Positions 323 to 9,615 of a DNA stretch of 9,949 bases are shown here, one piece after another (positions within the stretch are counted from its first letter, which is position 1; each line of letters starts with the position of its first letter). Under the pieces are notes generated by a model. The model was not told where the DNA came from. It was given only the letters and a program-made list of their open reading frames with translations, and did no database searches. A program made the position numbers and the translations under genes. Source of the stretch: a virus (taxonomy: Duplodnaviria > Heunggongvirae > Uroviricota > Caudoviricetes); IMG/VR virus record IMGVR_UViG_2695420478_000007. The stretch is one strand, 5' to 3'.

Positions 323-641
323 CAACTATTCAGATACATCACTCCCATCACATTCATTCCTCCACATCAAAGGCATATAGGCTATATCACCTTGATATTT
401 TTCTTCTTCAGATAAAAACTGTTATCTATGTATACTTTTAAACCCAATCCGTGTAGAGTCTCTGCATAAGATAGTTTGCAGTTGCCACTTCAGCTTGCGC
501 CATAAACCGCCTGATTTTTGCCGCCATCTGTTAGCATTCCTGTATACCTGAAACGACAATGTTTATCTACGAACTTTAAGAACACCCAGGATAAAAATTG
601 TCAACTATATCATATATAACACATTACTAATTCGAGGCTAT

Positions 642-755
642 ATGAACAGCATACTGATAATCACTTCGCTCCTTATCATATTCAGCATTTTTAGTCATGC
701 TCTAATAAAATTAGGGATTGGCATATCCAATAACCCAGACAAAACCGATGTATAA
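642..755 (+). CDS. Hypothetical 37-aa small hydrophobic protein ([37 protein letters not shown]), predicted single transmembrane helix
   Basis: ATG at 642 with GAGG 4-5 nt upstream; N-terminal 20 residues are strongly hydrophobic; lies in the AT-rich leader upstream of ydfK; below the ORF-track length cutoff. Confidence 0.3.
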
Positions 756-823
756 GTCAACATATCCTGAATCAGACATACAATATCGCAATGAAAATCA
801 ATAATATTTTAAGGAATATATTC

Positions 824-1057
824 ATGAAATCAAAAGACACCCTAAAGTGGTTCCCTGCGCAGCTTCCTGAAGTCAGAATTATCCTAGGGGATGCTGTAGT
901 GGAAGTAGCAAAACAGGGAAGACCTATCAATACCAGAACATTGCTTGATTACATTGAAGGAAACATAAAGAAAAAATCATGGCTGGATAACAAAGAATTA
1001 TTACAAACAGCGATATCAGTTCTTAAAGACAACCAAAATTTAAATGGTAAAATGTAA
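824..1057 (+). CDS. ydfK: YdfK/YnaE-family small prophage protein (77 aa), reported cold-shock inducible
   Basis: ORF 791-1057 contains MKSKDTLKWFPAQLPEVRIILGDAVVEVAKQGRPINTRTLLDYIEGNIKKKSWLDNKELLQTAISVLKDNQNLNGKM from the internal ATG at 824, which has AAGGA 8 nt upstream; recognised from memory as the YdfK/YnaE family. Confidence 0.85.
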   Translation: MKSKDTLKWFPAQLPEVRIILGDAVVEVAKQGRPINTRTLLDYIEGNIKKKSWLDNKELLQTAISVLKDNQNLNGKM

Positions 1058-1373
1058 TATAATAAACTTACTTTTTTATCATTTTTCCACTTTAACAACA
1101 TTTTGCTCCACTTTTCCACGACCAAACAACTTGAAATCTGGTTAAAATAACACGCAACACTATTCTTCTTCCTTGAGTCCGCCCGGAACTCGAAAAACAA
1201 ACCGAGTTAAAGCCATTTTTCACAAAATCGATTTTGGGTCTCACCAAAGTTACGGGGTTGCATACGCATTCGTTTATTTTCGAACGTGTACATACAAATA
1301 TGCACAAAAATAATCAAAATTATTTTCTGAGATGCATTATGATATGAACACCAATTTCGTATAGAGTCTCACT

Positions 1374-6169: not shown

Positions 6170-6288
6170 GATGGTGTTAACTCCAGTCATCGCTGGCACT
6201 ACCACTGCTGGTTCAGAGTTAAAAAAAACTATGATTTTTTTCATGATGTTACCGTAGTATGTGAGTATCCATCGAATAGACACCAAGC

Positions 6289-6310
6289 AAAAAAGCTCCC
6301 GAAGGAGCCT
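6289..6310 (-). terminator. Intrinsic terminator for cspI: stem GCUCC / GGAGC with UUCG tetraloop followed by U6 (on the - strand)
   Basis: The - strand reads GGCTCCTTCGGGAGCTTTTTT; classic stable tetraloop hairpin plus U-tract. Confidence 0.7.
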
Positions 6311-6515
6311 TCATTTTCACTTTTTTAAATCCAACGACAGACGGCTGGCATTTAAGTATTGTGAAATATTATCAAATGTAATCATCATTGATTTACAAAA
6401 GATACATTTTGCCCCGAAAGGATTCATGTCAGAAACATCAAAAGATGATGTTCTATACTGGGAACCATGACAACACGGGCATCTAAAGTGAATATGGTTT
6501 GTAATATTGTCTACC

Positions 6516-6728
6516 TCAAAGCGCCACTACATGAACAGCGGCAGGACCTTTAGGTCCGTTCTCAATACCAAATTCAACTTCCTGATTCTCAGTTAATGTT
6601 TTGAAATCGTTGCTCTGAATTGCTGAGAAATGGACAAACACATCTTTGCTGCCATCTTTCGGCGTGATGAAACCAAAACCTTTTTCAGGGTTAAACCATT
6701 TCACTAAACCAGTCATTTTGTTAGACAT
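6516..6728 (-). CDS. cspI: Cold shock protein, CspA family (70 aa)
   Basis: [38 protein letters not shown]... carries the RNP1 (KGFGFI) and RNP2 (VFVHF) motifs; C-terminus and prophage position fit cspI. Confidence 0.9.
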
Positions 6729-9399: not shown

Positions 9400-9615
9400 T
9401 TAATCAGTAATGATGACATTTGCTGCTGCAGGACCTTTAGCACCACTCTCTATAGAGAAGGTAACCTTTTGACCTTCAAATAAGGTTCGATAATTATCAT
9501 TCTGAATCGCAGAAAAATGCACAAACACATCTTTACTACCATCAACAGGAGAAATAAAGCCGAAACCTTTATCAGCGTTAAACCATTTTACTAAACCAGT
9601 CATTTTATTTGACAT
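9400..9615 (-). CDS. cspB: Cold shock protein, CspA family (71 aa)
   Basis: [38 protein letters not shown]... with RNP1 and RNP2 motifs; position upstream of the lysis cassette fits cspB. Confidence 0.9.

Follow-up and report, generated by a model that had tools for sequence, protein, structure and literature searches.

The 37-codon open reading frame upstream of ydfK in a Qin-type prophage is ynfT, a catalogued gene for a probable small membrane protein

A 37-codon open reading frame (ORF) lies just upstream of ydfK in a 9,949-nt stretch of Caudoviricetes DNA (IMG/VR record IMGVR_UViG_2695420478_000007; the whole stretch is referred to below as the window), and it raises the question of whether so short a frame encodes a protein and, if so, what kind of protein this would be. 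In an initial annotation made from the sequence, it was described as an unannotated hydrophobic mini-ORF with a plausible ribosome-binding site, whose architecture is shared by small membrane proteins and type I toxins. The ORF and its Shine-Dalgarno motif are present as described there:

Positions 642-755, plus strand: ynfT coding sequence, 37 codons plus stop, with an ATG start (ORF list, translation, RefSeq coding sequence, HMMs, hydropathy, dN/dS and published SPA tag).
Positions 633-636, plus strand: Shine-Dalgarno motif GAGG, 5 nt before the ATG (read from the sequence).

The ORF is not unannotated, however. It is ynfT, an already catalogued gene of the E. coli Qin prophage, whose paralog in the Rac prophage is ynaM. 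A RefSeq coding sequence named 'YnaM/YnfT family protein' (WP_120795384.1) has coordinates that correspond exactly to window 642-755, and the encoded amino-acid sequence is identical to the K-12 YnaM/YnfT proteins. The peptide is recognised by the Pfam family PF23676 'Protein YnaM-like' (96.2 bits, cut-off 27, aligned over all 37 residues), by NCBIfam NF041477 (63.9 bits against a cut-off of 35) and by the PHROG family phrog_35882, which is of unknown function (E 3e-20). When window 400-1100 was used as a megablast query against complete E. coli genomes, it was matched in 2,809 of 5,426, and match rows were sampled evenly along the ranking. Every sampled full-length match was annotated with both ynfT (or ynaM) and 'ydfK: cold shock protein YdfK', and RefSeq/PGAP placed ynfT at the exact coordinates in all 28 of the sampled full-length genomes, out of 2,793 records covering at least 80% of the query. 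At the Qin site the coding sequence lies between truncated ydfJ and ydfK, while at the Rac site of K-12 it is named ynaM and lies between uspF and the ydfK paralog. The window copy likewise directly precedes ydfK/ynaE, at that end of a lambdoid prophage where pin, tfa and stf lie; it is the same protein in the same position as other members of the YnaM/YnfT family, and nothing of substance differs. Since RefSeq, Pfam, NCBIfam, PHROGs and publications on small proteins already cover the gene, its translation and its family, there is little new in ynfT as a discovery.

The allele present in the window is nucleotide-identical to the one found at the Rac position in K-12-like genomes (loci L013 and L014), despite its location at the Qin site. 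The allele at the Qin position (L012) is that of phage mEp460, which is three synonymous changes away from the window ynfT. The identity with the Rac-position allele suggests that the two prophage copies have undergone exchange, or that a different phage lineage occupies this site.

Cataloguing aside, an ORF of this size could have arisen by chance in AT-rich prophage DNA and yield no product. Its length is uninformative in this respect, since 90% of 2000 composition-preserving shuffles of the 785-nt non-coding stretch (37% GC) contained an ATG ORF of 37 codons or more. The other features of the ORF argue against chance. A single transmembrane helix is predicted at about residues 4-22, which form the top 19-residue window of the protein (Kyte-Doolittle 2.52), and the tail is polar from N30 on (the last eight residues), in agreement with the hydrophobic N-terminus and polar tail described initially. 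An ORF of at least 37 codons with a transmembrane-like segment was found in 6.2% of the shuffles, and one that had a Shine-Dalgarno motif as well in just 0.3%; the combination seen in ynfT exceeds chance.

Comparison of ynfT copies points in the same direction. The gene is carried by functional lambdoid phages (mEp460, 2H10, Tritos, Turner, Kati and others), and diverged copies are found in Salmonella phage 118970_sal3 and on 270-kb Salmonella plasmids, where PGAP calls them YnaM/YnfT. In tblastn searches with the peptide, only the C-terminal 15 residues were aligned because the low-complexity filter masks the hydrophobic part, and the full copies were taken from fetched loci. In the comparison of E. 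coli with Salmonella, every copy is 37 codons long and free of indels. Relative to the window, the Salmonella copies show 21 and 25 differences, of which 13 and 16, respectively, are at third codon positions. The Nei-Gojobori dN/dS for E. coli versus Salmonella copies is 0.05-0.11 (dS 0.9-2.3), and none of the other five frames is open across ynfT. Among the copies the 12-residue polar tail and most of the helix are invariant, and GAGG and the ATATG context do not vary among the copies from E. coli, the Salmonella phage and the Salmonella plasmid. E. coli alleles are 2-5 substitutions apart, with at most one amino-acid change (S18G). From these substitution patterns, the amino-acid sequence of YnfT is judged to be under purifying selection. 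The initial annotation had named frame disruption in relatives, or the lack of a synonymous pattern, as grounds for abandoning the ORF; the frame is instead kept, with dN/dS of about 0.1 at dS of about 0.9-1.4, and a real gene is favoured. In one of 10 genome loci the frame is broken after codon 11 by several indels (L017, 2501-2620, at the Qin site of strain ECGI0523), which may represent either a decayed copy or a sequencing or assembly error.

The range of the family is narrow, comprising Escherichia/Shigella prophages and a few Salmonella phages and plasmids, and the conservation evidence consequently rests on few independent lineages. In a scan of one genome per species, ynfT was found only in Escherichia and Shigella and in three MAG contigs binned as Draconibacterium, Caldithrix and Alistipes (L008, L009 and L011). 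These three encode YnfT with 100% amino-acid identity and carry the mEp460 nucleotide allele, and they are almost certainly the result of contamination or mis-binning of E. coli DNA.

Expression of the gene has also been demonstrated. The initial annotation had called for ribosome profiling and for a western blot of a tagged fusion, and both had already been published with positive outcomes. In a table of small proteins, the identical peptide is printed twice, as ynaM between ynaE and ttcC (MG1655 1434406-1434293) and as 'ynfQ' between ydfJ and ydfK (MG1655 1632890-1633003), the latter locus now being named ynfT (VanOrsdel et al., 2018; Proteomics, PMC6001520). Both sORFs were chromosomally SPA-tagged and their products detected by immunoblot, and tetracycline ribosome profiling was positive for both loci (VanOrsdel et al., 2018). 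In stationary phase, YnaM-SPA accumulated above most newly detected small proteins, and YnaM was without start-codon ribosome density under retapamulin or Onc112 (Weaver et al., bioRxiv 10.1101/511675). Between 53 nt before and 22 nt after the ATG, the two copies of a K-12-like genome show no difference, and we infer that initiation footprints could not be mapped uniquely and were lost, which would account for the missing start-codon peak. The near-identity of ynaM and ynfT probably hides the gene from assays based on read mapping in general, and since the gene is duplicated in K-12, the effects of single knock-outs would be masked.

Taken with the conserved frame, the published tagged protein and profiling bear out the proposal of a real, translated gene for a small hydrophobic protein. 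The chance-ORF reading is refuted by the curated family cut-offs that the peptide passes, by the third-position substitution pattern in a frame that is conserved together with its length, with the other five frames closed, and by the tagged protein, and is left with a negligible probability. Very probably, then, ynfT is a real translated gene encoding a 37-residue, predicted single-pass membrane protein, and forms a cassette with ydfK.

The arrangement of this cassette is seen from the window and from related phages. The features that define it, in addition to ynfT itself, are the following:

Positions 39-84, no strand assigned: host/prophage junction on the attR side of Qin (truncated ydfJ ends at 38 and mEp460 homology runs from 84).
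Positions 593-641, plus strand: upstream block that travels with the sORF (homology to 118970_sal3 starts at 593; alignment of upstream regions).
Positions 824-1057, plus strand: ydfK, encoding 77 aa, annotated as cold shock protein; next gene downstream and near-constant partner of ynfT (RefSeq).

The window as a whole covers the right-hand part of a prophage of the Qin type, with a gene order of ynfT, ydfK, pinQ, tfaQ, tail-fibre and terminase remnants, ynfO, ydfO and gnsB, followed by ynfN, ynfR, ynfQ, cspI, rzpQ, rrrQ, ydfR, a holin gene, ynfU and cspB. As had been proposed, ynfT is located at the prophage edge: it lies about 560 nt inside the end, which is marked by the truncated host gene on one side of the junction and by the start of homology to mEp460 and other Qin-type sequences on the other. 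Homology to the Rac copy begins at window 280. Phage mEp460 has xis and int, then some 650 nt with attP, followed by ynfT, ydfK, pin, and convergent tfa and stf, and it is integration that puts int at one end of the prophage and ynfT-ydfK at the other. The two genes occur together in 13 of 13 phage records and in nearly all E. coli matches. Loci with ynfT are found at three integration sites, namely ydfJ, ttcA/uspF and prfC (the last in an O145 strain), so the phages that carry the cassette integrate at no fewer than three different sites. Salmonella phage 118970_sal3 is homologous in DNA to window 593-1061, that is, from 49 nt before ynfT through the end of ydfK.

One exception to this pairing is the Salmonella plasmid pLG24p2, where the ynfT sORF is intact and there is no ydfK within 2.5 kb. 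Similarity collapses there just after the ynfT stop codon, and a convergent tail-fibre assembly gene lies 35 nt past the stop. This arrangement indicates that ynfT is a unit of its own that is usually, and not necessarily, paired with ydfK. On pLG24p2 (L006, 1-5042), the sORF is flanked on one side by a colicin-like tRNase bacteriocin gene and a small downstream ORF, and on the other by phage tail, baseplate and tail-fibre assembly genes; this neighbourhood is unlike that of the lambdoid prophages, although in both the sORF adjoins a tail-fibre assembly gene.

The close association with ydfK raises the alternative that ynfT is a regulatory uORF, or leader peptide gene, in which the act of translation and not the peptide controls the downstream cold-shock gene, for example by translational coupling, by blocking Rho or through remodelling of the leader RNA at low temperature. 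Such a role would fit the position of ynfT on the same strand and 68 nt upstream of ydfK, a spacer in which the consensus scan found no terminator-like site, as well as the co-occurrence of the two genes noted above and the strong regulation that has been reported for ydfK and ynaE, for example in long-term stationary phase. A pure translational switch would have no need of the purifying selection seen on the peptide (dN/dS of about 0.1, with an invariant tail), and in tagged form the peptide has sufficient stability for detection. Such a uORF should also be found only before the gene that it regulates, and the intact sORF on pLG24p2 is found elsewhere. Regulation by translation as the function of ynfT is thus improbable, although ynfT may have a secondary regulatory effect on ydfK.

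The partner gene itself shows several features of its own. The longest ydfK ORF begins at an ATG at 791 and encodes 88 aa, as opposed to the 77 aa encoded from the annotated start at 824; the ATG at 791 is absent in 118970_sal3 and coding-type conservation begins at 824, which supports the annotated start. YdfK (824-1054) matched no Pfam family and had no relative among solved structures. Below threshold, it weakly resembles the regulatory protein YcgZ (NF040640; E 0.012, 15.9 bits where 80 are required), and a homolog is annotated as a predicted DNA-binding regulator in one phage record. The AT-rich spacer before ydfK (791-830) contains overlapping palindromic sequence at 808-829, and a minus-strand promoter-like site (833-806) overlaps it. 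A cluster of Fur boxes scoring 17.1 bits has been reported at '+8' relative to the ydfK/ynaE start annotated at the time (Chen et al., 2007; PMC2189734), and from conversion of coordinates we infer that this cluster corresponds to the palindrome at 808-829.

If YnfT is made as a protein, the second half of the initial proposal must be considered, in which the peptide would be a type I toxin that damages the inner membrane and is repressed by an antisense or divergently transcribed sRNA. YnfT resembles the known toxins of this class (Hok/Gef, Ldr, Ibs, TisB, ShoB, ZorO, DinQ and PepG1) in being a short hydrophobic peptide (37 aa, where the class is defined by fewer than 60 aa) with a polar tail, encoded on a prophage or other accessory element. 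It gives a very weak match to the PepG1 model (E 0.055), but at 13.1 bits this is far under the cut-off of 70, and PADLOC returned no match; no toxin family is thus matched at threshold.

An antisense partner for such a toxin could be sought on the opposite strand at 285-422, where there is a sub-threshold match to the Shigella sRNA CssrB, combined with a 19-nt repeat (411-429/590-608), an arrangement like that of tisB/istR and other divergent type I pairs; in addition, the minus-strand promoter-like site at 833-806 could drive antisense transcription. However, the best duplex predicted between a hypothetical minus-strand RNA (422-285) and the ynfT mRNA was equalled by 25% of shuffles, the 16/19 repeat was matched in 4 of 60 shuffles, promoter-like sites were not enriched over shuffles and no terminator-like site was called on either strand, and both the CssrB-like stretch and the first repeat copy are absent from the Salmonella copies, in which homology starts at 593. 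No Rfam family was matched at its gathering score, in a computational search that could pass over an unrecognised antisense RNA. The leader and ORF fold no better than shuffles (z +0.55 for 560-830 and -0.36 for 443-760), and there is consequently no sign of the stable structures sequestering the ribosome-binding site that are typical of hok, tisB and ldr mRNAs. The tagged protein is, moreover, tolerated at native level, YnaM-SPA being comparatively abundant from its own locus in stationary phase, although a C-terminal tag could inactivate a toxin. With no antisense partner above chance, no structured leader and a tagged protein that accumulates, YnfT differs from type I toxins in these respects, the earlier suggestion of a toxin finds no support in any feature compared here, and a toxin is very improbable.

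The sequence upstream of ynfT contains further elements. Within the block at 593-641, TATAAC at 615-620 (CATAAT in Salmonella) is a possible, conserved -10 element with no good -35, and no promoter was called there by the consensus scan, whose sole plus-strand promoter-like call upstream of ynfT is at 407-436. On the minus strand a consensus promoter-like site was called at 833-806. Enrichment of such sites over shuffles was not observed, and the same scan called no terminator-like site on either strand. The 19-nt direct repeat mentioned above consists of GATAAAAACTGTTATCTAT (411-429) and GATAAAAATTGTCAACTAT (590-608), which agree at 16 of 19 positions, a match equalled in 4 of 60 shuffled sequences; the first copy lies inside the promoter-like site at 407-436 and the second just upstream of the ynfT ribosome-binding site. 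In the diverged O145 allele (L019, 1512/1691) both copies are present at the same spacing of 179 nt, but the upstream copy is missing in the Salmonella loci. The CssrB match on the minus strand at 285-422 scores 28.7 bits against a threshold of 76, and a literature search on CssrB produced nothing relevant.

A strong plus-strand hairpin is found at 282-324 (CCGCAGCACG...CGTGTCTGCGG, -20.7 kcal/mol), followed by TTTTT, and it was not called by the consensus terminator scan. In mEp460 the corresponding stretch lies downstream of int and attP, and the homology with the Rac copy, which starts at 280, begins directly beside the hairpin. In lambda, the tI/sib retroregulation site occupies this position. 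Integration would part the hairpin stretch from int.

What the protein does can be approached by comparison with better known small proteins. A function or phenotype for ynfT or ynaM was not reported in the literature searched, and in a 2024 survey ynfT is still listed among the uncharacterised Qin genes; YnfT/YnaM is one of many validated E. coli small membrane proteins that have no assigned role. The 'small membrane protein' part of the initial interpretation is reasonable. YnfT would be made in the lysogen and, judging from hydropathy, inserted in the inner membrane as a single-pass protein, with an N-out/C-in topology weakly favoured because K23 follows the helix and the N-terminus has no positive charge.

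AcrZ, MgrB, MgtS, CydX and KdpF are characterised small E. coli proteins that span the inner membrane once and modulate larger membrane proteins. YnfT is like them in having fewer than 50 aa, one predicted hydrophobic helix and a short polar tail, and in having been detected by chromosomal SPA tagging; it is unlike them in showing no sequence relationship, in having no known partner, and in being phage-borne instead of belonging to the core genome. By analogy with most characterised small membrane proteins, it is tentatively suggested, at somewhat less than even likelihood, that YnfT binds and modulates a larger membrane protein of the host or of the phage, and the way in which it works is most plausibly that of the AcrZ/MgrB type. 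As such a modulator, YnfT would be a lysogen-expressed 'moron', possibly tied to the expression of ydfK in the cold and in stationary phase.

Other lambdoid morons offer a second comparison. Such genes near the tail-fibre region and att include HK97 gp15, which encodes a superinfection-exclusion membrane protein, and lambda lom and bor. Like these, ynfT is an accessory gene with a predicted membrane product, located at the end of the tail-fibre region that is nearer to att, and its expression in the lysogen is suggested by the tagged-protein data. We know of no sequence similarity of YnfT to HK97 gp15 or to lambda lom or bor, and of no exclusion phenotype of YnfT. A more specific, and rather doubtful, possibility is that ynfT and ydfK form a dedicated cassette for the lysogen in the cold or in long-term stationary phase, the peptide acting in lysogenic conversion and YdfK as its cytosolic partner. 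In that case YnfT could, for example, block the entry of DNA from superinfecting phages or tune a transporter or sensor in the host membrane. The evidence for this consists of the near-perfect co-occurrence of the two genes, the purifying selection and the moron-like location. For the membrane-protein gene itself, the fact that active lambdoid phages constantly carry it together with the cold-shock gene ydfK provides a concrete starting point for study.

The prophage segment in the window is rich in cold-shock-related genes in addition to ydfK, including ynfN, ynfR, ynfQ, cspI and cspB, with cspF just beyond; cold induction of YnfR has been reported. The cold-shock gene regions lie at 6249-6728 (cspI/ynfQ/ynfR/ynfN) and 9400-9615 (cspB), and they contain a 200-nt direct repeat with 73% identity (6529-6728/9416-9615), which corresponds to the paralogous cspI and cspB genes and adjacent sequence.
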